Virus record (IMG/VR): IMGVR_UViG_3300034031_000009
Coordinates: 1 to 64,000 of that record
Source: a virus
Length of the DNA: 64,000 nt
Direction: 5' to 3' (one strand)
The notes under the pieces are model-generated. The model did no database searches and was not told where the DNA came from. It was given only the letters and a program-made list of their open reading frames with translations. The position numbers were made by a program, and so were the translations under genes. Positions 3,639 through 32,256 of this stretch are shown piece after piece. How positions within the stretch are numbered: the stretch's first letter is position 1; every line of letters begins with the position of its first letter.

Positions 3639-3836
3639 TTAGAGTGATTCAAAATCATCCGCGACCATGGGCGGCCGCTTCGTTCTCCGCTGATCGGACA
3701 GGCGCACGCAATCCCTGCATGCGCCCGTCGAAACGTATCGTTCGCCCGCGTGGCCGGCTCGGCATGCGGCGCCCGTGTAGAACGGTTTCTTGGCGGCCCT
3801 AGCCGCCTGTCTGTCCGCTGACTTAATGCGGGGCAT
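3639..3836 (-). CDS. Small Cys-rich basic protein (65 aa) with an acidic DDFESL C-terminus
   Basis: ORF track; Arg/Lys-rich N-terminus; CRAGH...CRDC pattern. Confidence 0.6.
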   Translation of the reverse strand: MPRIKSADRQAARAAKKPFYTGAACRAGHAGERYVSTGACRDCVRLSDQRRTKRPPMVADDFESL

Positions 3837-4003
3837 TAGCGCGCCCAGGTCCAGCCGGCTGCCAAGGCCGCGTCAAGGTCGACATAGAAACGGGCGCCCC
3901 CGTTCGGATAGGCCATGCGAACCTGTAACCGTCCCTTGCGGCGAACGTGCTGCAGGTTCGCCTCTTTCCCGTCGAAACGGTTGCGCATGCGATAGTCGAT
4001 CAT
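3836..4003 (-). CDS. Hypothetical protein (55 aa), below the ORF-track cutoff
   Basis: MIDYRMRNRFDGKEANLQHVRRKGRLQVRMAYPNGGARFYVDLDAALAAGWTWAR. GGAGTGAG SD upstream; TAATG overlap with 3639..3836. Confidence 0.5.
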   Translation of the reverse strand: MIDYRMRNRFDGKEANLQHVRRKGRLQVRMAYPNGGARFYVDLDAALAAGWTWAR

Positions 4004-4090
4004 CCGACTCACTCCAAAGTTGACGGTTCACCGTTAGCGAGTCCGCGCTCGCATGCAAGGAAAAACTTAGGGCGATTGTCTTAGGGCTGC

Positions 4091-4199
4091 AGGTCGGCAC
4101 AGGTCGGCGGCTATCCCTCGACCATGGGCAGGTCGGCACAGGTCGGCGGCTATCCCTCGACCATGGGCAGGTCGGCACAGGTCGGCGGCTATCCCTCGA
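4091..4199. repeat. Three tandem 39-bp repeats (iteron-like)
   Basis: AGGTCGGCACAGGTCGGCGGCTATCCCTCGACCATGGGC at 4091-4129, 4130-4168 and partial 4169-4199. Each unit carries 2x AGGTCGGC. Confidence 0.9.
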
Positions 4200-4342
4200 T
4201 TATCTTAGGCCGGTTCGTCCCTAAGCCTTTCACCCCTAGAGATTCCGCGCTTTCTTGCCCGCTCACCTGGCATGTGGGCGGCTGAGCTGCCGAAAAACTT
4301 AGGCAAGCCAAAAAACTTAGGATCGGACGCATTCCCTAAGTT

Positions 4343-4373
4343 TTACTGTGTTACTGTGTTAGTGTGTTACATC
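4343..4373. repeat. Four tandem 8-mers TGTGTTA(C/G)
   Basis: TTACTGTGTTACTGTGTTAGTGTGTTAC read directly from the sequence. Confidence 0.8.
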
Positions 4374-4559
4374 GCTAACTCACCTCTTAAAGCATTGATA
4401 TTGCTCGGTTTATCCGGCTATGGGTCCCTCTGTCGGTGTGTTAGCTGGGGTGAGGAGCGCTGAGCCGCCTTTCTTGGCCCTGTTCAGAGTAACCCCCAGA
4501 GCAGATGCCGTTTTTCTTAGGGGAGGCAGATGGCTGCACAGGCACACAGGGTCCGATTT

Positions 4560-4801
4560 GGACCTGTTGCAGCAAAAACGGCTGATTTGCGTGGGTTTGA
4601 ACAGATGAACAGGTGAACAGCTTTTGCTATAGAGTATATTTCTGGAAACAGGGATTCAGGGGGCCTTGCGGCATACCCGTGGTAGGGACGAGAGGGGTAA
4701 AACAGGGGGCTGGGAGAGGAGGGTTAGTAGGGAAACCCCTGTTCACCCTGTGATCCTGTGACAAACCCGCAGAAATCTGCCGTTTTTGCTGCAACAGGTC
4801 C
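4560..4801. other. Putative replication origin
   Basis: Perfect 23-bp inverted repeat: GGACCTGTTGCAGCAAAAACGGC at 4560-4582 and its reverse complement at 4779-4801. It encloses 3x TGAACAG (4597-4620), inverted CTGTTCA/CTGTGA copies (4738-4762) and the AT-rich stretch CTTTTGCTATAGAGTATATTTCT. Lies directly downstream of the primase gene. Confidence 0.5.
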
Positions 4802-4835
4802 CCTGCACAGGTGGGCGCACAGGTGCCGGATTCAT

Positions 4836-4859
4836 GAAAAAGGGGCCTTTCGGCCCCTG
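4836..4859 (-). terminator. Terminator after the primase-helicase gene
   Basis: GGGGCC-tttc-GGCCCC hairpin, followed on the minus strand by TTTTTC. Confidence 0.65.
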
Positions 4860-4897
4860 ATTCACAAGTTTCTGAGAAGGTTTTAACGAGGTTTGTT

Positions 4898-7357
4898 TCA
4901 GCCCGTTTTGATGCTCATTCGATCAAGTCGACCCTGCCATCCAAACCTCTCATAAACCCGCTGTCTTCCCCACTTGGAGAAGGTCATAAAGCGGCCGTCA
5001 GCCTTCCAAGCCGGGATCTTTGACATCGCGCGACCGAGCGTCTGGGCGGTCTGCTGGTTGTAGAGGCCACGGTCCTTACCGAGGCATTCGACCCACAGCT
5101 CGATCAGGCACGTCTCATTGCGGAAGCGGGGTTGCCCGTCAGGACCGAGGTCTTCGTCCACGCTACCGGACACAATGGGCGCGTCCAGCCATGCAGCGAT
5201 CTGCCCGGCGACCGCGTCATCGACAGACTCGACTCGAGCCGATTCCTGAAGCCGTGCGGCTATGTCTCTGGATTCCGCGTCGGCCAGGTAGAGTGGCAGG
5301 GTGCCCTTCGGCTGCGCCTTCCGCATCGCTTCGTAGAGCGCACGCGCCTCCGCCCACAACTGGTCGACCTCGGCCATCAGGCGGTCGGTGTCGATTTCAT
5401 CCACCGAGCAGAAGATCGGCCAGAAGCGACGGTTGCCGGTGTCGTCCTTGAGATATTTGTCGTCGTTGGTCGACCCGATGAAGACGCACTGCCGGTGGTA
5501 CTCCTGGGCGCGCTTGGCATAGGCCAGGCGGACCTTGTCGGAGCGGCGGCTGATGAACGCCTTGACGTGCCGCACGTCTGCGCGGACGAAGCCGCCCAGT
5601 TCAGGGATTTCGAGCAGCCACGAACCCTGCATGGCTTCAACCATCTGCCGAGGGTCTTCCATGTCGCCTTCAAGCTCGGCGAACCATGACTTTGCCAGCG
5701 TCGAGATGAACGTGGACTTCCGCTTACCCTGCAGGCCCTGAAGAATCACTGCGAAATCGAACTTGGCGCCCGGCTCGAAGATACGCGCCACGCCTGCGAC
5801 CATCATCAGGCGCGCGACGTTGCGGGTATAGGCGTCGTCCGGTGCCCCGAGATAGTCGATGAACAGACGCTCGACGCGCGGCGAGCCGTCCCATTTCACG
5901 GCGGAGAGGTATTCGCGAACCGGATGGAAGCAGTTCTTCCGACCGACGATGTCGATCGCTGCGCGCAGATCCCGGTCGGGCACCTTGATTCCGTAACCAC
6001 CCTGCGTTTTCGGTGCCTCGATCAGCGCACGGATCGCGTTGTCCTTGTCCTCGGTCCAGAAGTCGCCGTTGACCGGGTCACGCAGGAACCAAGATGAGCC
6101 GTCAAGCTGCAGAACAGGCTTGGAAGCATTCTTGCGACGCGCGGATTTGAGGCCGGGCTTGCCGCGCTGCACGACTTCCTGCGTGAACTCGTTGAACGCG
6201 ACCACACCGCGCGTCCACACGTCGTTTTCGACAACCAAGCGTAGGTTATGGAGGTTCGCCTTGATCTCACCTTCGTCGGTGATCGCCAAAAGCGACTTCC
6301 AGCTCGGCGCAGCTTCGGATTCTTCGACCTTACCTCCATCCCAGTCGTCGTCGGACGCCTGTTCAGCCGTCAGCAACTCGTCGAACTCATCCTCAACCTC
6401 GGTCTCTGCGTCCAGATCGTCGAACTCATCGGCCAATGCGACCGACTGGTCGTCGCGTGCCCAGCCAATCACCGTCCGGAAGGTTGTCGGCCGTCGACTC
6501 GTGCGCCGGCCGTAGGACCGCCACTTTCCACGAGTGCCGTTCTTCTTGTAACCGGGCCGTGACTTGGAAAACTCCTCGAACAGCTCCAATCCGACCGCGC
6601 TGGCGGCAAACTGGTGATGGATCGCCATGCCGATCTGATACCAGCTATCGTAATCGGCACCCCGATGATCGGCCAGGCGACCGAGCCACTTGCGAGCGGC
6701 ATCTTCGTCGATGTCGGACAGCGGACCTTCGTCACCGTAGAACGGCTCGCCGGTTTCTTCCTTTGCGCCGGCATCCTCTACTGCGGCAGACGGGATTTCG
6801 GGTGCGACGCCGAGGTTCAGTGCGTCCAGATCGAAGGGTGTGACCCAGACGTAGGGCTTGCCGGTGTCCGGATGGATCGACGGCGGCATGGCAACCTGTT
6901 TGCCGGTGCCGAACAGCTCGATTTCCCACGTCCAGTGCGGCCCCTTGGCGTCAGTGAACTTGACGCCGCTGACAGCCAGCTTGCGCGATTGGAAAGACTT
7001 ATCGGTGACGAAGTAGAGGTGGCGCGACTCGCCTCCGGAACCCGACTGGACGGTCGGCAGCGCGGTCAGATTGACGCCCGGGAACAGGTCGCGCAGTGCT
7101 TCCCATGCGGAACCGGTATCCGATGCGATCCGGATGTCCATGTCGATCACATGGAGGTAGCCACCTTCGACACGCGAGGGTTCACCAAGGCGAACGCCGA
7201 CGTTGTAGTCGGGCGAATAATCGCTGCGCAGCGTCGCGATCGTCGCGACCGGGCGTTCCTGCCACTTGTCACCGATTGGCCGCTTCTGTTTCGGGTGTAA
7301 CCAATGGATCGCGAAGCCGGACTCGACGAACGGGCTGACTGTTTCGATCAGGTTCAT
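4898..7357 (-). CDS. Primase-helicase (N-terminal PrimPol-like domain plus VirE/D5-type P-loop domain), 819 aa
   Basis: Walker A GLQGKRKST. VirE-type motif CVFIGSTNDDKYLKDDTGNRRFWPI. N-terminal PrimPol-like region. ATGA overlap with 7354..7827. Confidence 0.85.
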   Translation of the reverse strand: MNLIETVSPFVESGFAIHWLHPKQKRPIGDKWQERPVATIATLRSDYSPDYNVGVRLGEPSRVEGGYLHVIDMDIRIASDTGSAWEALRDLFPGVNLTALPTVQSGSGGESRHLYFVTDKSFQSRKLAVSGVKFTDAKGPHWTWEIELFGTGKQVAMPPSIHPDTGKPYVWVTPFDLDALNLGVAPEIPSAAVEDAGAKEETGEPFYGDEGPLSDIDEDAARKWLGRLADHRGADYDSWYQIGMAIHHQFAASAVGLELFEEFSKSRPGYKKNGTRGKWRSYGRRTSRRPTTFRTVIGWARDDQSVALADEFDDLDAETEVEDEFDELLTAEQASDDDWDGGKVEESEAAPSWKSLLAITDEGEIKANLHNLRLVVENDVWTRGVVAFNEFTQEVVQRGKPGLKSARRKNASKPVLQLDGSSWFLRDPVNGDFWTEDKDNAIRALIEAPKTQGGYGIKVPDRDLRAAIDIVGRKNCFHPVREYLSAVKWDGSPRVERLFIDYLGAPDDAYTRNVARLMMVAGVARIFEPGAKFDFAVILQGLQGKRKSTFISTLAKSWFAELEGDMEDPRQMVEAMQGSWLLEIPELGGFVRADVRHVKAFISRRSDKVRLAYAKRAQEYHRQCVFIGSTNDDKYLKDDTGNRRFWPIFCSVDEIDTDRLMAEVDQLWAEARALYEAMRKAQPKGTLPLYLADAESRDIAARLQESARVESVDDAVAGQIAAWLDAPIVSGSVDEDLGPDGQPRFRNETCLIELWVECLGKDRGLYNQQTAQTLGRAMSKIPAWKADGRFMTFSKWGRQRVYERFGWQGRLDRMSIKTG

Positions 7358-17095: not shown

Positions 17096-17803
17096 ATGCC
17101 TGCCACCGTCACCAAGAGGAAGGCCGCCGTCGAGACGCTGCCGAAGGTGATTCGTTCGCCCGAGTTCGCACGTCGATTTGAGCAGGCTGCCGATCTGCAC
17201 CCCCATTGCCCGGCGAAGCATCGCGGCCGGCTGGAATGGGTCTCCGACCAGATGACCAAGAAGGGTCACTCGGTCAGCAACGAAACCGTTCGTAAGTGGT
17301 TCTCGGGTGAGGCGACACCGCGTCCTGACAAGGGCGCTGTGCTGGCCGAGATCATGGAGGTGGATGTTGCATGGCTGCAGATGGGTATCGACGCCAACCT
17401 GGCACCCCGCGAGCGCAAAGCCCGCAACGCCATGGCTGACGGCGCGGTCAACGTGGTCGCCGGTCTGATCCAGATGGATGGCGGCAACCCGGCCTTCCCC
17501 GACGACGATGACAAGCGCGCTGAGCGGGAACACATCGACCTCTATGCGATCATCCGTGGCGGCAGTTATTCGCTGAACATCACACTCGGGGAGACCGAGG
17601 GGCGCAAGGCGAAGTTCGCCGTTCCCACGGCGCTCGGCGAGAACGTGATCGCACTGGGCGTCATCCGCGAGGGCTTCACGTTTGACGTGTTCGAGTTGAC
17701 ACCGGACCTGATCGAGACTGGTGCCCGCCGTGGCGCGTCGATCGAGGTGACGGCCGACGCTTCCAAGCTGCGCCGCATCGAAGGGTTCAATCGGCGCCTA
17801 TAG
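17096..17803 (+). CDS. XRE/CI-like HTH regulator (235 aa), candidate repressor
   Basis: HTH segment HSVSNETVRKWFSGEATPRPDKGAVLAEIMEVDVAWLQMG. The C-terminal domain is unrecognised (no S24 motif). Has its own promoter. Confidence 0.6.
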   Translation: MPATVTKRKAAVETLPKVIRSPEFARRFEQAADLHPHCPAKHRGRLEWVSDQMTKKGHSVSNETVRKWFSGEATPRPDKGAVLAEIMEVDVAWLQMGIDANLAPRERKARNAMADGAVNVVAGLIQMDGGNPAFPDDDDKRAEREHIDLYAIIRGGSYSLNITLGETEGRKAKFAVPTALGENVIALGVIREGFTFDVFELTPDLIETGARRGASIEVTADASKLRRIEGFNRRL

Positions 17804-17832: not shown

Positions 17833-20154
17833 GTGGGCAACCCTCTGCCCACGGAGAACCCCACCTTGACCAGCGCAGCCCAGTTCCAAGCCAAAGTCAC
17901 TAAGGGGGTCACGAACCTAGACCGCCTCGACTCCATCGTGAACGGTGGCCCGACTGTTGACGTGACGACGGACAACGGGGTGGTTCCGTCGCTGGCAAAG
18001 CTGGCTTCTCAGTTTTCCGGCTGGTCCCCGGTGCTATCTCCGGAGAGCGACGGTACGCGCCGGGTTCTCAAGATCGTTGACTGGATCACCGCCGTCGATG
18101 TTGACGGCGCCGTCAAGCCCCCGATCAACAAATATCTGGGTTCTGCGGGTCTCGTAGATACGGCGGCTGCCGCCACCGACTTCGGTCTTCCCGGTGCCAA
18201 GGGTGATCCGGGTGCCGCAGGCAATGTCGCTGGGAACCTGGCACAGCTCAAGGCGGCAGCGACGACCAATGTCACGATGCTCTACAGCGCGAAGCTGTTC
18301 ACTTGGACGACTGGTAACTTCACCGGCCTTGCCGATGACGTGAATGTCATCAAGAGTGATGCGAATGCCCTGTCGGTCGGTGCATGGGTCAGCGCGGCTT
18401 ACGCCAATGCCACGGCAGCATTGGTTGCCGGCGGTGCGATCGACAACCCGGCCGTGCCGTATCTGCCCGGATCTGCCCGGTTCGCGGGCACCCGTGGCAA
18501 TGTGCATCTGTATGACACAGCGATCATCGGCACAACGGATCTCCTCACGAACGGCAATTTTGCCGGCTTTCCCGCTACCGGCTGGACTCTGTCGAACTTC
18601 GACTCAAACAATCTCGGCATTACGCACGCGGCTGGTTCAATCGGTAGTGCCAAGCGTTCGGTGACCGTTGCGCCCTACACCCTCTACCTGATCCGCGCGA
18701 CTATTCAGACGACCTCTCCAGGCGACGTAACCTTCTACCTGGCTGGCCGTGGTGAGTTCAACGAGGACGAGGGTACGGCGCTCACGGTCGGTACGGTTAC
18801 GCTGGAACTACCGTTTCTGACGGGCACGTCGAACGGAGATGTGGACTTCGAGTTTCGCACTGTCGACACCGCATGGGCAGGTAAACTTATATCGCTGGCG
18901 CTAATCCAGGTTCAACAGGAAGCCCCTTACGACTTCTTCAGCATGCCCTCGGACAACAAGACGTTCAACAATCTTCTCGGGATGAAGTTCGGGCGGTTCC
19001 TGGCGGGCAATATCGGCATCGGGGATCGGCAGACCAACGGACTGGTCTACGGAAGTAACGGTGCATGGAATGTCGCGCTCGGCTCGCGTGCCAACGCCTC
19101 GATCCAGAACCACTTCGAGAATACCGCAATCGGCGGACTAGCACTGGAATATAACCAGACCGACAGAGCAACAGCCGTTGGCTATTCGGCGCTACGCTAC
19201 AACACTTTCGGCATTGAGAACTCGGCTTTCGGTTACAAAGCATTCGGCCGCAACTCTGTCGGTAACCGGAACACGGGTGTCGGCTTCCATGCCGCGCTCT
19301 ACAGCAAGACGGGCAGCAGCAACACTGTCGTTGGCGATCAGGCGCTGTATTACAGCCTCACCGGAAACTTCAATGTCGCTGTAGGGGACCGGGCCGGGTT
19401 GAACGGCGGAGGTGACGCCAATGTGTATCTCGGTGCCCTCTCTGGGCCGTTCACCGCCGGCGAGTTCCGTTTCACCTATGACAACCAGGTCTGTGTCGGT
19501 CCTAATAGTAAGGCTTATGGTGACAACGCGATCGCGTTGGGGTCCGCAGCGCAGGTTGGCACCAATCCGAACACGGGCGGAGTGGCGGTTACGGACGGCG
19601 GCGTGGCGCTCGGTGCTGGTGCCCGCGCTCTGAACCAGTCCATATCGGTGGGCACCGAAGCTGGCGCGAATATCGTCGGCACACAGAACACAATCGTCGG
19701 CCACGGTGCCGATGGGGGCGCGCACAGCAACACGACGACGCTCGGATTTGGCGCATCGTCGTCCGGTAACAATCAGGTGACGCTTGGTAATGGGAGTGTC
19801 ACAGCGATCCGAGCTGCGGTCACGTCGATCAGCGCCATCTCGGACGCGCGAGACAAGGAGGACATCTCTTACATCAGCGGTGAGTTTGCCTCATCGTTCA
19901 TACTTTCGCTGGAGCCGGCGCGCTGGACGTGGGCGATGCGCGACGGTCCCGCTCGCGAAGGAGGCGATTACGGGTTCATCGCACAAGACTTGCTCGCGGC
20001 TCAAACGGCTGTGGACGCGGACTGGCTGAGCCTCGTGAACACGTCAGATCCCGAGCGACTGGAGGCCACGCCCGGCAAGCTGGTGCCGATCCTCGTGGCT
20101 GCGCTGAAAGACGCGCTGATACGGATCGAGAATCTGGAAGCCAATCAACTTTGA
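17833..20154 (+). CDS. Tail fibre/spike with a C-terminal S74 intramolecular-chaperone domain (773 aa)
   Basis: GTG start. Gly/Asn-rich beta-helix-like repeats. C-terminal SDARDKEDISY ... YGFIAQDL motifs, typical of peptidase S74. Confidence 0.8.
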   Translation: MGNPLPTENPTLTSAAQFQAKVTKGVTNLDRLDSIVNGGPTVDVTTDNGVVPSLAKLASQFSGWSPVLSPESDGTRRVLKIVDWITAVDVDGAVKPPINKYLGSAGLVDTAAAATDFGLPGAKGDPGAAGNVAGNLAQLKAAATTNVTMLYSAKLFTWTTGNFTGLADDVNVIKSDANALSVGAWVSAAYANATAALVAGGAIDNPAVPYLPGSARFAGTRGNVHLYDTAIIGTTDLLTNGNFAGFPATGWTLSNFDSNNLGITHAAGSIGSAKRSVTVAPYTLYLIRATIQTTSPGDVTFYLAGRGEFNEDEGTALTVGTVTLELPFLTGTSNGDVDFEFRTVDTAWAGKLISLALIQVQQEAPYDFFSMPSDNKTFNNLLGMKFGRFLAGNIGIGDRQTNGLVYGSNGAWNVALGSRANASIQNHFENTAIGGLALEYNQTDRATAVGYSALRYNTFGIENSAFGYKAFGRNSVGNRNTGVGFHAALYSKTGSSNTVVGDQALYYSLTGNFNVAVGDRAGLNGGGDANVYLGALSGPFTAGEFRFTYDNQVCVGPNSKAYGDNAIALGSAAQVGTNPNTGGVAVTDGGVALGAGARALNQSISVGTEAGANIVGTQNTIVGHGADGGAHSNTTTLGFGASSSGNNQVTLGNGSVTAIRAAVTSISAISDARDKEDISYISGEFASSFILSLEPARWTWAMRDGPAREGGDYGFIAQDLLAAQTAVDADWLSLVNTSDPERLEATPGKLVPILVAALKDALIRIENLEANQL

Positions 20155-20714: not shown

Positions 20715-20927
20715 ATGTTCAAGATTGTGAGGCGCCTGCGTGTGACGCTGACGCTAAAGAGCGGAATAGAGATCGAGTTCGATTGCGACGACCTGACGAA
20801 GAACTTCCGTGGCAACGACTTGACCGGGCTGCAGGCCGCTCGCAGTCGGAACTGGCCGTTCTATATTCGCCTGGACGACATCTCGGCTATCCAGACCCGG
20901 AAAACTGGCTGGGTCATCAGGTTGTAG
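20715..20927 (+). CDS. Hypothetical protein (70 aa)
   Basis: ORF track; GAAAGGA SD. The stop codon lies inside the box at 20921-20938. Confidence 0.6.
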   Translation: MFKIVRRLRVTLTLKSGIEIEFDCDDLTKNFRGNDLTGLQAARSRNWPFYIRLDDISAIQTRKTGWVIRL

Positions 20928-20938
20928 GATTGTTGGAG
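20921..20938 (+). promoter_or_regulatory. M-box copy GTTGTAGGATTGTTGGAG
   Basis: 18/18 identical to 25518-25535. See findings for the full copy list. Confidence 0.8.
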
Positions 20939-21955: not shown

Positions 21956-21976
21956 GTCGCCATAGGGAGAATGAAG

Positions 21977-22174
21977 ATGACCTACCTCTACATCTATTTG
22001 GCAGTCGCCATCCCGCTCGCGATGTTCGCCTGCTTCTGGGGCGGTCGCGCATGGGATTACGATCAGGCGGTCGGCGGTGCATGGTGTGCTGCGCTATGGC
22101 CGATCATTCTCGTCGCCTTCCTCATTTGGGCGCCGTTCGGTGGCATGTTTTGGCTCGGACAGAAGTTCGGCTGA
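21977..22174 (+). CDS. Small membrane protein (65 aa), paralogue of 23355..23636
   Basis: MTYLYIYLAVAIPLAMFACFWGG...; two hydrophobic segments; leader GTCGCCATAGGGAGAATGAAGATG. Confidence 0.65.
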   Translation: MTYLYIYLAVAIPLAMFACFWGGRAWDYDQAVGGAWCAALWPIILVAFLIWAPFGGMFWLGQKFG

Positions 22175-23354: not shown

Positions 23355-23636
23355 ATGACGTACCTCTACATTTATCTCGCCGTGGCGCTGCCAACTGGGA
23401 TGTTCGCCTGCTTCAGAGGCGGCTGGAACTATGACTACGATGACGCTATCGGCGGTTGCTTGATGGCGCTCGTATGGCCGATCGTCGCGGTAGCCCTCCT
23501 CGCATGGCTTCCGTTCGGTGGTGCCTTCTGGCTTGGTGGCAAAATCAGCGGCCAATCTCCGCGTCCCCCGGCTGGCGACTTGCCACTACCGCGTCGTTCC
23601 GATGTTGCACCGCCGCCAGCGCGCCCGTCACGGTAG
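23355..23636 (+). CDS. Small membrane protein (93 aa), paralogue of 21977..22174
   Basis: MTYLYIYLAVALPTGMFACFRGG...; leader GTCGCCATGAAAGGAG; Pro/Arg-rich C-terminal extension. Confidence 0.6.
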   Translation: MTYLYIYLAVALPTGMFACFRGGWNYDYDDAIGGCLMALVWPIVAVALLAWLPFGGAFWLGGKISGQSPRPPAGDLPLPRRSDVAPPPARPSR

Positions 23637-23639
23637 CCC

Positions 23640-23867
23640 TCACTCGATAATCATAATCGCCAGCACTGTGAAGAATCCGACCTCGATCCCGCCGAACCGT
23701 CCGCCGGCCACCATCCCCCTCACGACCTTCAGCAGGTGGCCGGGACTCTCGTAGCGGATCATGTGTTCGATCGTGTCGAGTGCGAGTTGCCGGCCAAGTT
23801 CATTGTCGCGCGCCCAGACGCCGGTCTCTGATAGATCGACCGACTCGTTGATCCTGATGACGTTCAT
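23640..23867 (-). CDS. Hypothetical small protein (75 aa) downstream of the LuxR-type gene
   Basis: Start at MNVIRINES with a GGGGG SD-like run. Hydrophobic C-terminus. Confidence 0.55.
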   Translation of the reverse strand: MNVIRINESVDLSETGVWARDNELGRQLALDTIEHMIRYESPGHLLKVVRGMVAGGRFGGIEVGFFTVLAIMIIE

Positions 23868-23934
23868 CTGTTTAGCCCCCGTTGTTGGAGGCACTGTCTC
23901 AGGTACGCAAGCGTACAGCTATCACCCTAAAGGG

Positions 23935-24696
23935 TCAGAGCAGATCCTTGAGGTCGATTCGCTGCTCGTAGAGTAAACGGATGACTGCCTGAACAGTCTT
24001 GGATGCACCTAGAATCGTTCGTGCATCTTTAAGGTGCCGCTTCACTGTTTCCTCAGAGATGCCGAGATGCTTGCCGATTTCATGCTCGGTCAGGCCGCGT
24101 CCGGCAAGCATCACACATTCGACCTGCCGATCGGTGAGGCTGTGACGTTCAATGGCGTGACTGCCTGGCGACAGGATGAATCGTCGCCCGGCCTCAAATG
24201 CGAACAGGGCCACCGTCTGCGCCATGAGCAGGTTTTCCGTGGACAACTCGCGACCGGCGTTCATGGCAAAGCTGCACGAGCCTGACGGTTGATCGGGGAG
24301 GTGGACCGGAACGACAAACGTCTCCCCGATCCCCGCGCGTGCCTCGGCCACTGTGAAATCCCTCTCCGCGTCGGTGCGGTCGCGGGGAATATCGTAGGAC
24401 CGGAAGCCGACACTGGTGCGGCGCCCGAACGCCACCACCGGGTCGATGTCGATGAAGTGGTTGCGCGTGTAGTGCTCCGCCCAAGACTCCGCATGATTAT
24501 GGAAGCAGACCATCTCCCCCTTCGCCATGTGGTCGAGGTTCGATTGGTAGCCGGATAGATCGACCCACTGGACGACAGAGTAGCGGTCGAAGCGCATGTT
24601 GCTGCCGATAGCCTCAACCAGGACGGCCACCTGCCTCGGTGTGTTTGCTAGTCGGGTGGCGTCTATGAACGATTGGATGTCAACCAAGCGGCTCAT
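23935..24696 (-). CDS. LuxR-family regulator (253 aa): autoinducer-binding-like N-domain plus LuxR HTH
   Basis: WAEHYTRNHFIDIDP has the W-x3-Y-x8-DP spacing of the conserved W57/Y61/D70/P71 positions of TraR/LuxR. C-terminal HTH LTDRQVECVMLAGRGLTEHEIGKHLGISEETVKRHL. Confidence 0.8.
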   Translation of the reverse strand: MSRLVDIQSFIDATRLANTPRQVAVLVEAIGSNMRFDRYSVVQWVDLSGYQSNLDHMAKGEMVCFHNHAESWAEHYTRNHFIDIDPVVAFGRRTSVGFRSYDIPRDRTDAERDFTVAEARAGIGETFVVPVHLPDQPSGSCSFAMNAGRELSTENLLMAQTVALFAFEAGRRFILSPGSHAIERHSLTDRQVECVMLAGRGLTEHEIGKHLGISEETVKRHLKDARTILGASKTVQAVIRLLYEQRIDLKDLL

Positions 24697-24791
24697 GGGT
24701 CGAGGTTAGCTGCGTCGCCCTGTCGCGGGCAAGACCCCTTGATGTCGCGGCTTGTTTTGTAACATGATTCGTTGTAACTTAATTGCATTGA

Positions 24792-24840
24792 ACCGGGGCG
24801 GCCTCTCAGCGATGCACACTGCCCCGGTCTTTTGGGGTTT
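24792..24840 (+). terminator. Terminator-like hairpin upstream of (antisense to) the luxR-type gene start
   Basis: ACCGGGGC-21 nt-GCCCCGGT followed by CTTTTGGGGTTT. Confidence 0.35.
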
Positions 24841-24953
24841 CAGAGGAAGGGCGCGAGCGCACCCGGTCCCCGCATAGTGCGGGATCAACGCCCCGGCGCG
24901 AACGGCCGTACCTGCTGGCAGACCAGGTGTATAATCGTCTGCCTCCTTTCCCC

Positions 24954-24997
24954 GTTGTAGGATTGCTGTAGCCCGTCATGGGAATCCCCATAACGCC
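24954..24997 (+). promoter_or_regulatory. M-box plus hairpin module
   Basis: GTTGTAGGATTGCTGTAG-cccgt-CATGGGAATCCCCATAACGCC. The last 21 nt are identical to the reverse complement of 30145-30165. TATAAT lies at 24930-24935, just upstream. Confidence 0.75.
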
Positions 24998-25048
24998 TCT
25001 GCCGTTCGACGACCATCTAGGTCGCCATCATGGCGTTTCACTTTCTGG

Positions 25049-25078
25049 TTGACACGACTCCGAATCACTCGCTAGCGA
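25049..25078 (+). promoter_or_regulatory. Sigma70-like promoter pointing into the ORF-free locus
   Basis: GGTTGACAC-N15-GCTAGCGA. Same architecture as the promoters at 2879, 20156, 30684 and 32023. Confidence 0.4.
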
Positions 25079-25084
25079 TGCGGC

Positions 25085-25500
25085 TCGCCACGGCACTGAG
25101 ACCTCGGTCTTTAGGACGGTGACGGAGCAGGATAGGCCGGACGCCTGCTCCACGAAATCGCCCCGAGTTCCACGGCGTAAGTAGGCGACGGCCCAAAGCG
25201 TGAGATGGAGCGGGAACGGCCAGGGTGGCGGTCAGTAGTTCCGGATCAGAATGTCGGAGCGAATGCCGCCACCCTGCGAGTTTCGCAGTGCAGAGAAGCG
25301 CCGAGGCACGGGCAGTAGGTGGTACGGCTCGCGAGGCCCCCATCGAAGGATCGAGAAGGCGTCAGGAACTGGTCGCTGCGTAGGGTGGCGGCGAACGTCA
25401 TGCGCTGGGCGGTAGGTTCCGTCGCATGACGGAAACGGCGCCGCCACCCACTTTATCCACAGCCCATTGAGTCCCATCTAATCCCATGCCGTCCGTCCTC
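25085..25500 (+). ncRNA. Candidate structured RNA / int leader, or attP arm region (unassigned)
   Basis: No credible ORF in six frames. 11-bp helices at 25221-25231/25266-25276 and 25383-25393/25439-25449, the latter with a nested 9-bp helix 25396-25404/25423-25431. An 8-bp hairpin at 25124-25151. Confidence 0.25.
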
Positions 25501-25517
25501 GAACCAGCGACGCGACT

Positions 25518-25560
25518 GTTGTAGGATTGTTGGAGAAAGCGTTACGGGAAATCCCGTTAC
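25518..25560 (+). promoter_or_regulatory. M-box plus hairpin module upstream of int
   Basis: GTTGTAGGATTGTTGGAG-aaagcgtt-ACGGGAAATCCCGT-TACGC. Confidence 0.75.
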
Positions 25561-25658
25561 GCAGCAATGTCAACAACTTACGATGCAGCATCGGCGACTG
25601 CCGGGGTCGCCAATCACCATTCCATGACACCTTCTGGAACCTCCCTGGACACCGCGCA

Positions 25659-25680
25659 AACCCTTTAACCATAAAGGGTT
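25659..25680 (+). promoter_or_regulatory. Perfect 9-bp stem / 4-nt loop hairpin in the int upstream region
   Basis: AACCCTTTA-acca-TAAAGGGTT; no U-tract follows. Confidence 0.6.
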
Positions 25681-25775
25681 CCTGTCTCATACGTTCCCAT
25701 ATTGCATCTGGACAGCCCGCGCCTGACTGCTAAACCTACCACGGTTTCTACAGCAGCAGAGGGACGGCCTACAAC

Positions 25776-26960
25776 ATGCTCACCGATACCGAGATTAAGC
25801 AGACTCCGACCCCAGAGGCCGTCAAGAAGATGGCTGATGGGGGTGGTCTTTATATTGAGCTGTCCCCTGCCGGCACGCGGACCTGGCGATGGGCGTTCCG
25901 ACACTGTGGCAAGCAAAAGACGCTGACGATCGGTGCCTACCCGAAGGTCACGCTTGCCCAAGCGCGCAAGGCCCGCGATCTAGCTCGGGAGCGATTGAAG
26001 GACGGGGTCGACCCTGTGATCGAACGCCAGCAGCAACGCGAACGCGCCATGGCGGCGGCTGGAACGACGTTCGAGGACATCGGCCGTGAGTGGCAAAATA
26101 AACGGAAGCAGGAGGATCTGTCTGACTCGGCGTACCGCAAGGATAAGCAGTTGCTCGACCATCACGCTTATCCGGCAATCGGGCCGCGACCCATCAACAC
26201 GATCACGCCGCCGGAAATCCTGACGCTACTGCGTCGCGTCGAGGTCCGGGGTCATGTTCACACTGCGAAGCGTCTGCGCTCCACCCTATCGCGGGTGTTT
26301 CGTTATGGCGTTGCGACCGGGCGCTGTGATCGCGATCCCGCTGCGGACCTGGTGGGCGCGCTTGTGACGAAGAAAACAGTGCATCATCCCGCACTGTTCG
26401 ATCCGAAGGAAATCGGCGCCCTGGTGCGCGCCATGGACGGATACGAAGGTAAGTTGGTTCGCTTGGCAATGCTGATCCAGCTTCACACCTTCGTTCGGCC
26501 GGGGGAACTGCGGAAGGCCATGTGGTCCGAGTTCGACTTGGATACCGCAATTTGGAGGATTTCCGGCGCACGCATGAAAATGCGACGGGACCACATCGTA
26601 CCATTGTCGCCGCAGGTCGTTACGATGTTGCGCGAGCTGCAAGAATTGAGCGGGTACGGGCACTGGCTGTTTCCGTCGATGCTTGGCAGCAAGATTTGCA
26701 TGTCGGATGCCACCGTCAACGCAGCGCTGCGGCGTCTCGGGTACGGTCGCGACCGGGTGGTCGGCCACGGGTTCCGCAGAACCGCCAGCACGATTCTAAA
26801 CGAGAGCGGACTGTGGTCGGTGGATTCGGTCGAGCTTCAGTTGGCCCACGTCGACGGCTCTGTGAGGGGAATTTACAATGCTGCATTGCGTCTCGACGAG
26901 CGCACCAAAATGATGTCCTGGTACAGCGATTGGCTCAATGAGCAAGCCGCTAAAGTCTAG
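25776..26960 (+). CDS. int: Tyrosine integrase, P4-type (DUF4102-like N-terminus), 394 aa
   Basis: N-terminus LTDTEIKQ...GGGLYIELSPAGTRTWRWAFR...TLTIGAYP. Catalytic HGFRRT, LAHV and terminal Y (IYNAA). Confidence 0.9.
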   Translation: MLTDTEIKQTPTPEAVKKMADGGGLYIELSPAGTRTWRWAFRHCGKQKTLTIGAYPKVTLAQARKARDLARERLKDGVDPVIERQQQRERAMAAAGTTFEDIGREWQNKRKQEDLSDSAYRKDKQLLDHHAYPAIGPRPINTITPPEILTLLRRVEVRGHVHTAKRLRSTLSRVFRYGVATGRCDRDPAADLVGALVTKKTVHHPALFDPKEIGALVRAMDGYEGKLVRLAMLIQLHTFVRPGELRKAMWSEFDLDTAIWRISGARMKMRRDHIVPLSPQVVTMLRELQELSGYGHWLFPSMLGSKICMSDATVNAALRRLGYGRDRVVGHGFRRTASTILNESGLWSVDSVELQLAHVDGSVRGIYNAALRLDERTKMMSWYSDWLNEQAAKV

Positions 26961-27535: not shown

Positions 27536-27564
27536 TGGACATTCACTTAAAAGGTGATTATGAG
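27536..27564 (+). promoter_or_regulatory. Promoter of alpA-type gene 1
   Basis: TGGACA-N17-TATGAG. The core AAAAGGTGATTAT is shared with the upstream region of the second alpA-type gene (32025-32038). Confidence 0.45.
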
Positions 27565-27591: not shown

Positions 27592-27783
27592 ATGAGCAAG
27601 CGAACGGAGTTTTGGCGCATCAATATGGTGATCGCCGTGGTCGGACTATCTCGCAGCGAGATTTATCGGAGAGTCGCTGCCGGCACGTTTCCGCAGCCAC
27701 GGAAATACAGCGGCGGCAGCACCGCGAGTTTTTGGGTCTCTGACGAGATCCACCAGTGGCAGCGCCAGCAGCTAGACGGCTGA
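27592..27783 (+). CDS. alpA: AlpA-family HTH protein (63 aa), candidate excisionase/regulator
   Basis: LSRSEIYRRVAAGTFPQPRKYSGGSTASFWVSDEIHQWQ matches the AlpA/Xis-type signature. AAGGAG SD. Confidence 0.85.
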   Translation: MSKRTEFWRINMVIAVVGLSRSEIYRRVAAGTFPQPRKYSGGSTASFWVSDEIHQWQRQQLDG

Positions 27784-27803: not shown

Positions 27804-28055
27804 CTAAAGTCGGCCGCAGCGATTAGGCTCGCCGTGTGCGTCCGCGTAGCAAACCCCGGCTTCATCGCATCCGACGCCCATGTTGCACGGCTTGGTCGGA
27901 AGCAGTGCCTCCAACGATCCTACAACACCGACCTCAAAGAAGCCGTCCTCGACGGCTTGGGCGTGGATCGCTTCGATAGTCCACCCTTCGCCGATCTTCT
28001 GCTCAAGGTACGATTCCTCGAACCCTGCATCGCGGAGTTCCTGGTAGAGCGTCAT
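27804..28055 (-). CDS. Hypothetical acidic protein (83 aa)
   Basis: Start at MTLYQELR, with ATGA overlap with 28052..28315. Confidence 0.55.
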   Translation of the reverse strand: MTLYQELRDAGFEESYLEQKIGEGWTIEAIHAQAVEDGFFEVGVVGSLEALLPTKPCNMGVGCDEAGVCYADAHGEPNRCGRL

Positions 28056-30684: not shown

Positions 30685-30768
30685 CCGAAAGTTGAATGGA
30701 GATTTGGCGACCCTATGGGTCCACCGCCGTCAGAGGGGAAACGGGGAAAATCGCGGCGATCCTACAAC

Positions 30769-32067: not shown

Positions 32068-32256
32068 GTGCCCGAACATCCTGTTGAGTTTCTTCGCCTT
32101 CGCGATGTCAAGCAACGCGCGGGCCTCTCGCGCAGCGAAATCTATCGCCGCATCGCCGCCGGCCGTTTTCCGCAGCCACGTAAATACCCCGGCACCACGA
32201 TGACCTTCTGGCTCTCGACCGAGGTACAGGCGTGGCAGCAGGAACAACTCCGGTGA
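32068..32256 (+). CDS. AlpA-family HTH protein, second copy (62 aa), first gene of the late/packaging operon
   Basis: LSRSEIYRRIAAGRFPQPRKYPGTTMTFWLSTEVQAWQ; GTG start. Confidence 0.8.
   Translation: MPEHPVEFLRLRDVKQRAGLSRSEIYRRIAAGRFPQPRKYPGTTMTFWLSTEVQAWQQEQLR

Follow-up and report, generated by a model that had tools for sequence, protein, structure and literature searches.

A phage-borne LuxR-type receptor with a putative lux box and a small gene in the position of luxI

An important question raised by a gene for a LuxR-type quorum-sensing (QS) receptor on a phage is what this receptor senses and which gene or genes it controls. Here we address this question for the IMG/VR virus record IMGVR_UViG_3300034031_000009, of which positions 1 to 64,000 were analysed (hereafter the window). 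In this window, a luxR gene encoding a protein of 253 amino acids (aa) is followed, after a gap of 67 nt and in the same orientation, by an open reading frame (ORF) for a protein of 75 aa, termed ORF75; both ORFs were found where an earlier note, made from the sequence alone, had placed them. Best supported by our comparisons is a descent of this pair from a luxR-luxI-phyH locus of the sphingomonad type, of which the gene for the receptor and the promoter of luxI, lux box included, would have been kept, with the synthase replaced by the 75-aa protein. With slightly more confidence than doubt, we propose that luxR, lux box and small ORF now form a self-contained cassette, i.e. an accessory module of a temperate phage in which ORF75 holds the luxI slot and would be activated by LuxR at host quorum. 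To our knowledge, eavesdropping of phages on QS is established for a few systems only, i.e. VqmA of Vibrio phage VP882, the XRE-LuxR/small ORF (smORF) systems of Aeromonas phages and the xre-luxR-luxI prophages of Roseobacter. The combination of a phage LuxR with a small ORF is therefore a known theme; new here are the probable Sphingomonadaceae host, the integrase-bearing chi-like siphophage that carries the cassette and its simpler architecture.

The receptor, its ligand pocket and its bacterial relatives

That the locus encodes a LuxR-type receptor on a phage is nearly certain. The N-terminal domain (residues 26-169) matches the Pfam family Autoind_bind (PF03472) with E=8.3e-18 and 64.8 bits (cut-off 23), and the C-terminal domain (residues 185-239) matches GerE (PF00196) with E=3.2e-9 and 36.7 bits (cut-off 23.5), which bears out the combination of an autoinducer-binding N-domain with a LuxR helix-turn-helix (HTH) that had been read from the sequence before. 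An AlphaFold2 (AF2) model built from 26 homologues has a mean predicted local distance difference test (pLDDT) score of 90.6 and a predicted template modelling (pTM) score of 0.84. When this model was compared with the PDB by Foldseek, the best 50 matches were all LuxR-type QS receptors, with SdiA, TraR, QscR, RhlR, LasR and CviR at the top, and template modelling (TM) scores against LasR ligand-binding domains, normalised to the target, were 0.77-0.82. The structural check suggested in the earlier note, i.e. a comparison with TraR, LasR and SdiA, thus finds the autoinducer-binding fold present.

What this receptor binds is a more difficult question. The motif WAEHYTRNHFIDIDP comprises W72, Y76, D85 and P86, which in HMMER alignments to RhlR, TraR (of NGR234), SdiA, LasR, CviR and QscR fall onto the W57/Y61/D70/P71 block of TraR, just as had been assigned by eye; together with G122, the equivalent of TraR G113, five of six conserved ligand-domain residues are kept. 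Three points weigh against an N-acyl homoserine lactone (AHL) as the ligand: the position of TraR W85, described already in the earlier note as not conserved, is S100 in the phage protein, the position of TraR Y53 is H68, and the closest bacterial solos likewise without the W85 tryptophan have no known ligand. Because of these two substitutions, the ligand may be a small molecule other than an AHL, or there may be none, in which case the protein would have kept the LuxR fold but operate as a conventional phage transcription factor. Among similar bacterial proteins there are indeed Trp-less solos, which form a LuxR sub-clade whose genes do not adjoin luxI, and solos that respond to non-AHL ligands are established, with plant-associated ones discussed in PMC4288048. 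We nevertheless consider such a non-AHL receptor rather unlikely, since the equivalents of W57, Y61, D70, P71 and G113 are all kept, the sister LuxR of a second phage contig (L202, see below) retains a tryptophan at the W85 position, AHL production is common in sphingomonads (PMC4288048, PMC5012321) and phage LuxRs tested to date have bound AHLs of their hosts (PMC6456758). By a narrow preference, an AHL therefore appears the better candidate.

Further towards the C terminus, the TraR positions E178, L182 and G188, i.e. the three conserved residues of the DNA-binding domain, correspond to Q191, V195 and G201 (HMMER alignment to TraR of NGR234). Since glutamine at the first of these positions is invariant across the whole LuxR clade (LTxRQxEC), Q191 is a trait of this clade and not a sign of decay. 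A tblastn search of the 64 kb, with three proteins from homologous loci as LuxI queries, yielded no similarity to LuxI or PhyH below E=0.2, about 5-9 kb of the source contig lying outside of the window. Within the 64-kb window, the protein is thus a LuxR solo, i.e. a receptor with no luxI-type synthase on the same replicon, as the earlier note had classified it.

The nearest bacterial proteins (42-47% identity) are found in Sphingomonadales and Parvularculales, and nearly all of their loci are arranged luxR-luxI-phyH, as documented in Sphingomonadaceae (Gan et al. 2015, PMC4288048). With the chromosomal loci of sphingomonads, the phage locus has in common the LuxR clade, the sequence of a lux box and its position just after luxR, and the spacing between box and start codon. 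It differs in having a 75-aa gene instead of luxI plus phyH, in being located on a phage and in the changed pocket positions Y53 and W85. The evolutionary origin of the cassette therefore seems still legible in its sequence, i.e. as a luxR-luxI unit in which the synthase would have been swapped for a small effector behind an intact putative lux box.

Two further loci deserve mention in this context. In an Allosphingosinicella metagenome-assembled genome (L012), the gene for a Trp-less solo LuxR is followed by a box, TGCCCCTTTAGGGGGA (3811-3832), and then by an ORF for 718 aa (3951-6107), which by eye resembles an ABC exporter; if so, the box of this clade drives targets other than luxI also in bacteria. 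The best match of the phage LuxR to a nominal phage protein (36.7%) is in GenBank MT835580.1 (L216, 19533-26186), an 'UNVERIFIED Bacteriophage sp.' from human faeces. This unverified record bears a complete luxR-luxI-phyH set and was for these reasons rejected as a parallel case; behind it stands either a phage that has an entire QS system of the sphingomonad type or bacterial DNA deposited under a phage label.

The putative lux box and the gene in the luxI slot

Upstream of luxI, about 50 of 60 bacterial loci have a palindrome close to the luxR stop codon, at a distance of 0-35 nt and in a few cases of up to about 55 nt; the lux-box consensus of the clade is TCCCC-N6-GGGGA. A dyad in the corresponding place of the window, TGACCCTTTAGGGTGA, is a 16-mer that occurs once in the entire window. 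A position weight matrix (PWM) trained on 29 bacterial boxes of the same LuxR clade ranks this site first among 63,979 window positions, but with a score of 10.4, which speaks against an operator in being lower than that of every training box and than the mean maximum obtained with shuffled sequences (12.1). Thus, the significance of TGACCCTTTAGGGTGA rests on its placement and on its match across loci and not on a genome-wide score. In L214, the bacterial locus closest to that of the phage, luxI is preceded by the box TGACCCTTTAGGGGGA, i.e. a 15/16 match to TGACCCTTTAGGGTGA, and the box of locus L213 is TGACCCTTTGGGGGGA. From the centre of the box to the start codon, the distance is 62.5 nt for the ATG of ORF75 compared to 58.5-73.5 nt for luxI in six bacterial loci. 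In addition, the recognition-helix region of the receptor is kept, with GISEETVKRHLKDAR in the phage protein versus GISDETVKRHLKEAR in L214. Judged by these comparisons, TGACCCTTTAGGGTGA is a probable, though by no means assured, operator by which the phage LuxR would control ORF75; lying in the luxI slot behind a matching box at a matching distance, ORF75 is probably LuxR-activated.

In the PWM scan, the runner-up sites are at 2379-2400 (score 10.0) and 27539-27560 (score 8.4). The latter, TCACTTAAAAGGTGA, is a weak match between ORF180 and alpA1, a gene for an excisionase-like regulator, and would matter if LuxR also touched excision control. Another palindrome with 9-bp arms, AACCCTTTAACCATAAAGGGTT (25664-25685), is located about 90 nt upstream of the integrase start; it has ACCCTTTA in common with the lux box, with a different spacing of the arms.

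The dyad at the luxR stop codon had been overlooked in the earlier note, which described a hairpin in the luxR-ORF75 gap. The palindrome in question, GTACGCAAGCGTAC, is present, but it has no T-run, was not called by the terminator scan and gives a fold z-score of only -1.07, i.e. no significant structure, and was therefore rejected as an intrinsic terminator; the likelier operator is TGACCCTTTAGGGTGA. A role of GTACGCAAGCGTAC as a further operator, located in the spacer of the promoter, is conceivable, and contig L202 carries a different palindrome, TGCCTAAGTTATAGGCA, at a similar place. Since the scan found no terminator at all between luxR and ORF75, basal read-through from luxR is likely.

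ORF75 itself is a real coding gene. Its GC content at the three codon positions (0.61/0.37/0.79) is similar to that of other genes of the phage, and the 75-aa form was also predicted by an independent gene caller on the public contig. An exhaustive HMMER search revealed a family of at least 95 homologous clusters of 60-120-aa proteins with the motif W..ETGDW..DN..GR...GRYGGVEVGF, and the locus may thus give a handle on a widespread family of small proteins with no assigned function. The AF2 model of ORF75 is a three-helix bundle (pLDDT 90.2). No informative match was obtained in Pfam, PHROGs, NCBIfam or the sequences of the PDB, and a Foldseek search with the model against PDB and BFVD gave nothing below E=2, including no likeness to TraM, QslA or Aqs1. 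Relatively strong conservation for a protein of such small size hints at a conserved target. In the neighbourhoods of other ORF75 homologues (L200, L203-L205, L215), no recurrent partner was found, the neighbours being genes for a DNA methylase and an integrase and a tape measure gene.

On the other side of ORF75, paralogous small hydrophobic proteins (MTYLYIYLAVA...FGG.FWLG.K) are encoded at 21971-22174(+) and 23355-23636(+), and the second of these genes is convergent with ORF75 and ends 4 nt from its stop codon.

Table 1. Coordinates in the window of the cassette, its elements and features of its surroundings.
Feature	Position	Strand	Description
luxR	23935-24696	-	253 aa, ATG start; LuxR-type receptor/transcription factor with N-terminal autoinducer-binding domain and C-terminal GerE/LuxR HTH
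putative lux box TGACCCTTTAGGGTGA	23922-23937	-	16 bp with the dyad ACCCT-TT-AGGGT, in overlap with the TGA stop codon of luxR; would be the operator for ORF75 transcription
palindrome GTACGCAAGCGTAC	23903-23916		between lux box and ORF75 ribosome-binding site
Shine-Dalgarno-like GGGGG	23876-23880	-	8 nt upstream of the ORF75 ATG; read from the sequence
ORF75	23640-23867	-	75 aa from ATG (84 aa from an upstream GTG); holds the position of luxI in bacterial homologous loci
luxR-int spacer	24697-25775		1,079 bp, non-coding, between divergent genes; luxR promoter, presumably attP, two M-boxes (24954, 25518), terminator-like element
tyrosine integrase (int)	25776-26960	+	Pfam Arm-DNA-bind_3, Phage_int_M, Phage_integrase; context, outside of the cassette
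M-box copies	20921-20938(+), 24954-24971(+), 25518-25535(+), 27909-27926(-), 30751-30768(-)		each oriented with the next downstream gene

A second cassette, the proposed mechanism and known systems

The same gene pair recurs on a second viral contig, IMGVR_UViG_3300020156_000063 (L202). Here, an ORF75 homologue (51% identity) lies directly downstream of a luxR homologue, whose product is 50% identical to the LuxR of the window and hence closer to it than any bacterial LuxR found; in a crude neighbour-joining tree, the two phage LuxRs are sisters. As in the window, there is an overlap between the stop codon of luxR and a box, TGACCCTTTGAGGGGA, and another, near-perfect box, TGACCCTTTAGGGGGA, again with a 15/16 match to TGACCCTTTAGGGTGA, is located 70-90 nt upstream of luxR. 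When the boxes of the window, L202, L214 and L213 are aligned, TGACCCTTT.GGG.GA is invariant, with the remaining spacer being unalignable. The two phages are related (74% identity in TerL, 44% in TerS), but in L202 the cassette is found about 3 kb upstream of alpA-terS and points the other way with respect to the terminase, and an integrase gene was not seen in the 10 kb fetched. The same gene pair in another position and orientation means that the cassette behaves as a mobile and self-contained module, and its recurrence strengthens the functional link between receptor and 75-aa ORF that the earlier note had suggested. A LuxR-profile scan of IMG/VR with a first set of patterns gave nothing, and a profile of the two phage LuxRs, run against IMG/VR and metagenomes, retrieved only the L202 contig; more members may lie beyond the reach of these scans.

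How would such a cassette operate? In the mechanism that we propose, the phage LuxR would fold or dimerise upon binding an AHL (or a related ligand) produced by the host population. It would then bind to TGACCCTTTAGGGTGA, the dyad with which the luxR gene ends, as suggested by the homology of both box and DNA-binding helix, and would activate ORF75 from a luxI-type promoter, for which the conserved spacing argues, over a low level of read-through from luxR. ORF75 would be the output of the module and its most likely role would be in a density-dependent decision of the phage, i.e. induction, immunity or host manipulation. More speculatively, a lineage of sphingomonad phages may have turned a self-amplifying host luxR-luxI circuit into a sensor-effector device that needs no XRE protein and in which ORF75 sets the fate of the phage (induction or immunity) or disarms a conserved host function. 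That ORF75 specifically governs lysis-lysogeny we regard as a similarly tentative proposal, with an antirepressor role, by analogy to the Aeromonas phages, being conjectural. If this more speculative reading is true, the cassette would be a portable quorum-triggered switch that works without an XRE partner, and a new phage effector family (at least 95 clusters) would have in ORF75 its first member with a functional placement. In any case, the locus offers a directly testable triplet of promoter, operator and receptor.

Besides the pocket substitutions and the low score of the box, several observations weigh against the proposed mechanism. Only two instances of the cassette were found, a sigma-70-like promoter was not detected in the luxR-ORF75 gap, and the host is inferred from relatives only. 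Moreover, other ORF75 homologues occur in prophages without any luxR, which means that ORF75 is able to work without LuxR. Alternatively, then, the box might be a mere leftover of a captured luxR-luxI fragment, with luxR and ORF75 being co-transcribed constitutively and without any dependence on LuxR or a signal. Consistent with such a relic are the short gap with no intervening terminator and no promoter-like hexamers, the genome-wide sub-threshold score of the box and the fact that ORF75 relatives function elsewhere without LuxR. However, at about 50% protein identity and with spacers that are otherwise unalignable, the two phage cassettes have both kept the box overlapping the stop codon, the spacing from box to start codon has been retained as well, and L202 has its additional near-perfect box upstream of luxR. 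Taken together, this indicates selection on the site and renders a relic quite improbable.

A different question is whether the main targets of the phage LuxR are in the cassette at all. In a scenario of lysogenic conversion, i.e. a hijacking of host QS, the receptor would occupy host lux boxes and act mainly on host promoters, such that AHL synthesis and the QS regulon of the host would be raised, lowered or rewired, and ORF75 would be a passenger or an accessory such as an anti-activator of the host LuxR. LuxR-controlled small helical anti-activators exist, with TraM as an example. Moreover, 15 of 16 box positions are common to the phage and the bacterial luxI promoter box, the recognition-helix region is conserved between GISEETVKRHLKDAR and GISDETVKRHLKEAR, and the cassette sits at the prophage end beside attP/attR, which is the usual location of morons. 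Cross-regulation between phage and host QS is also documented, i.e. for Phaeobacter prophages (PMC13345283). On the other hand, the pairing of a box at the 3' end of luxR with the small ORF has survived in both phages, which argues for a target in cis inside the cassette. Furthermore, the ORF75 model lacks structural likeness to TraM, QslA and Aqs1 in the PDB, and ORF75 homologues are present in prophages devoid of luxR. We therefore consider host promoters as the main targets improbable, although less so than a relic, and favour control of ORF75 within the cassette.

Small helical proteins that are genetically or functionally coupled to a LuxR-type receptor are found in the pairs TraR-TraM of the Ti plasmid, where traM itself is activated by TraR, and Aqs1-LasR of phage DMS3. 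Since ORF75 has no similarity to TraM or Aqs1 in sequence or structure, this is a functional analogy only.

As precedents, the earlier note had named phages of Vibrio and Aeromonas, but their architecture turns out to differ. The LuxRs of ARM81ld and Apop bind the host-produced C4-homoserine lactone (C4-HSL; Silpe & Bassler 2019, PMC6456758), and in the Aeromonas phages LuxR and an XRE partner activate a divergent smORF, whose product inactivates cI (Silpe et al. 2023, PMC10432266). Common to these phages and the window are a LuxR receptor on the phage, which has diverged from host receptors, the lack of a phage luxI and an adjoining small ORF as the presumed output. Adjacency of a transcription factor gene and a small ORF, a trait of the modules described by Silpe et al. 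(2023), is thus present and the pairing is kept in L202, with activation suggested by the box. However, the receptors of window and ARM81ld/Apop are only 24.6% identical. ARM81ld/Apop require an XRE protein encoded in the same operon and their smORFs are divergent, whereas ORF75 has the orientation of luxR and occupies the luxI slot after a box typical of the clade, and no XRE or HTH ORF was found next to luxR in either the window or L202. ARM81ld and Apop are linear plasmid-like phages of Gammaproteobacteria, in contrast to the integrase-bearing siphophage of a probable sphingomonad studied here; their smORFs have no homologues, whereas the ORF75 family is large; and antirepressor activity has been demonstrated for the Aeromonas smORFs but would be assigned to ORF75 by analogy only.

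Roseobacter prophages carry lysis-lysogeny switches that consist of xre-luxR-luxI plus a counter-oriented hth gene (Bunsick et al. 2026 preprint, PMC13345283). These are likewise alphaproteobacterial prophages with exchangeable LuxR-based QS modules that act as mobile cassettes within phage genera. Yet, the Roseobacter modules include luxI, and thus produce their own signal, an upstream xre and the counter-oriented hth, none of which flanks luxR in the window. In PMC13345283, luxI served as the entry point of the survey, and the Roseobacter clade was the only one for which prophage modules were reported; LuxR-only cassettes would therefore have escaped it, and in general, surveys of phage QS that start from luxI miss cassettes that consist of a receptor without a synthase.

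Phage context and further elements

Both flanks of luxR are phage DNA, in agreement with the phage-borne location claimed before. To the left are genes for a primase/helicase, an exonuclease, a Gp2.5-like single-stranded DNA-binding protein, endonuclease VII, a family-A DNA polymerase, a helicase, an HNH protein, a 235-aa regulator and a Peptidase_S74 tail-spike-like protein; to the right follow the integrase, two AlpA genes, a PAPS-reductase-like gene, TerS and TerL. The phage is a temperate siphophage with a chi-like/DSS3-P1-like terminase and a T7-like replication module. Its TerL is 44-49% identical to that of chi-like/DSS3-P1-like siphophages, 73-79% to that of uncultivated viral contigs and 76% to that of a prophage of Sphingomonas sp. 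RB3P16, and the host is probably Sphingomonas or a relative, as judged from these sequence matches. Megablast of 20-30 kb against GenBank phages gave no match, whereas the Logan contig SRR10954971_3811 equals the window with 0 mismatches over 20.7 kb (window coordinate = Logan coordinate + 4169). Rfam found nothing in the whole window, and no tRNA genes were found. Among candidate early ORFs, Pfam revealed no clear CI-type repressor, with the 235-aa regulator, encoded at 17096-17803, having only a weak match to HTH_3 (E=0.006).

The gene order pol-reg235-int-alpA-terS-terL is common to several relatives. In relatives captured as prophages, int is the first gene, and in two related prophage genomes a tRNA gene is directly upstream of int. 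With a tRNA attachment site in this place in relatives, attP is almost certainly within the spacer between luxR and int, in which there is no coding-type ORF. The location of the cassette beside int and attP, as proposed in the earlier note, thus stands as far as the integrase gene (1,079 bp from the luxR start) and the reasoning from the tRNA genes of relatives are concerned; neither a short-word BLAST comparison with tRNA-int junctions from related prophages nor 16-mer matching against all fetched loci identified the attP core itself.

A dispersed M-box, GTTGTAGGAT[TC]G[TC]TGGAG, is present in five copies within 20.9-30.8 kb, with its 8-mer TGTAGGAT occurring 5 times as compared to 0.5 expected occurrences. 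None of the other fetched loci has this motif, related phages included, and it may be a promoter or regulator site specific to this phage. A tentative link between the M-box and the receptor had been drawn in the earlier note from a partial match to the V. fischeri lux box, which is irrelevant for the present clade. Its observation that the M-box lacks dyad symmetry was correct; since the M-box is also unlike the clade box (TCCCC-N6-GGGGA / TGACCCTTTAGGGGGA) and gives no PWM signal, it was rejected as a LuxR site.

Also within the luxR-int spacer, at 25023-25053(+), there is a GC hairpin, CGCCATCATGGCG, with TTTCACTTTCTGGTTGAC behind it. Two related viral contigs, L186 and L195, have the 22-mer GGCGTTTCACTTTCTGGTTGAC in identical form; the hairpin ahead of it differs there in sequence yet still pairs, and by this comparison the element resembles a conserved terminator or the 3' end of an RNA. 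An M-box is located about 70 nt upstream, and together the two elements could bound a small RNA.

Finally, a few observations concern more distant parts of the window. The gene for a tail-spike-like protein of 773 aa, which has a Peptidase_S74 chaperone domain, lies at 17833-20154(+), i.e. beside replication and regulator genes and far from the structural module, in the same variable region as luxR. Two AlpA-family paralogues are present in this one phage, at 27592-27783(+) next to int and at 32068-32256(+) just before terS. Perfect tandem repeats are found at 1-164 (40/57-bp units) and at 4089-4199 (a 39-bp unit, x2.8), and the first 4.9 kb of the window (1-4.9 kb) are poor in ORFs with a coding-type GC content at the third codon position, such that this region may be an origin, iteron or packaging region.

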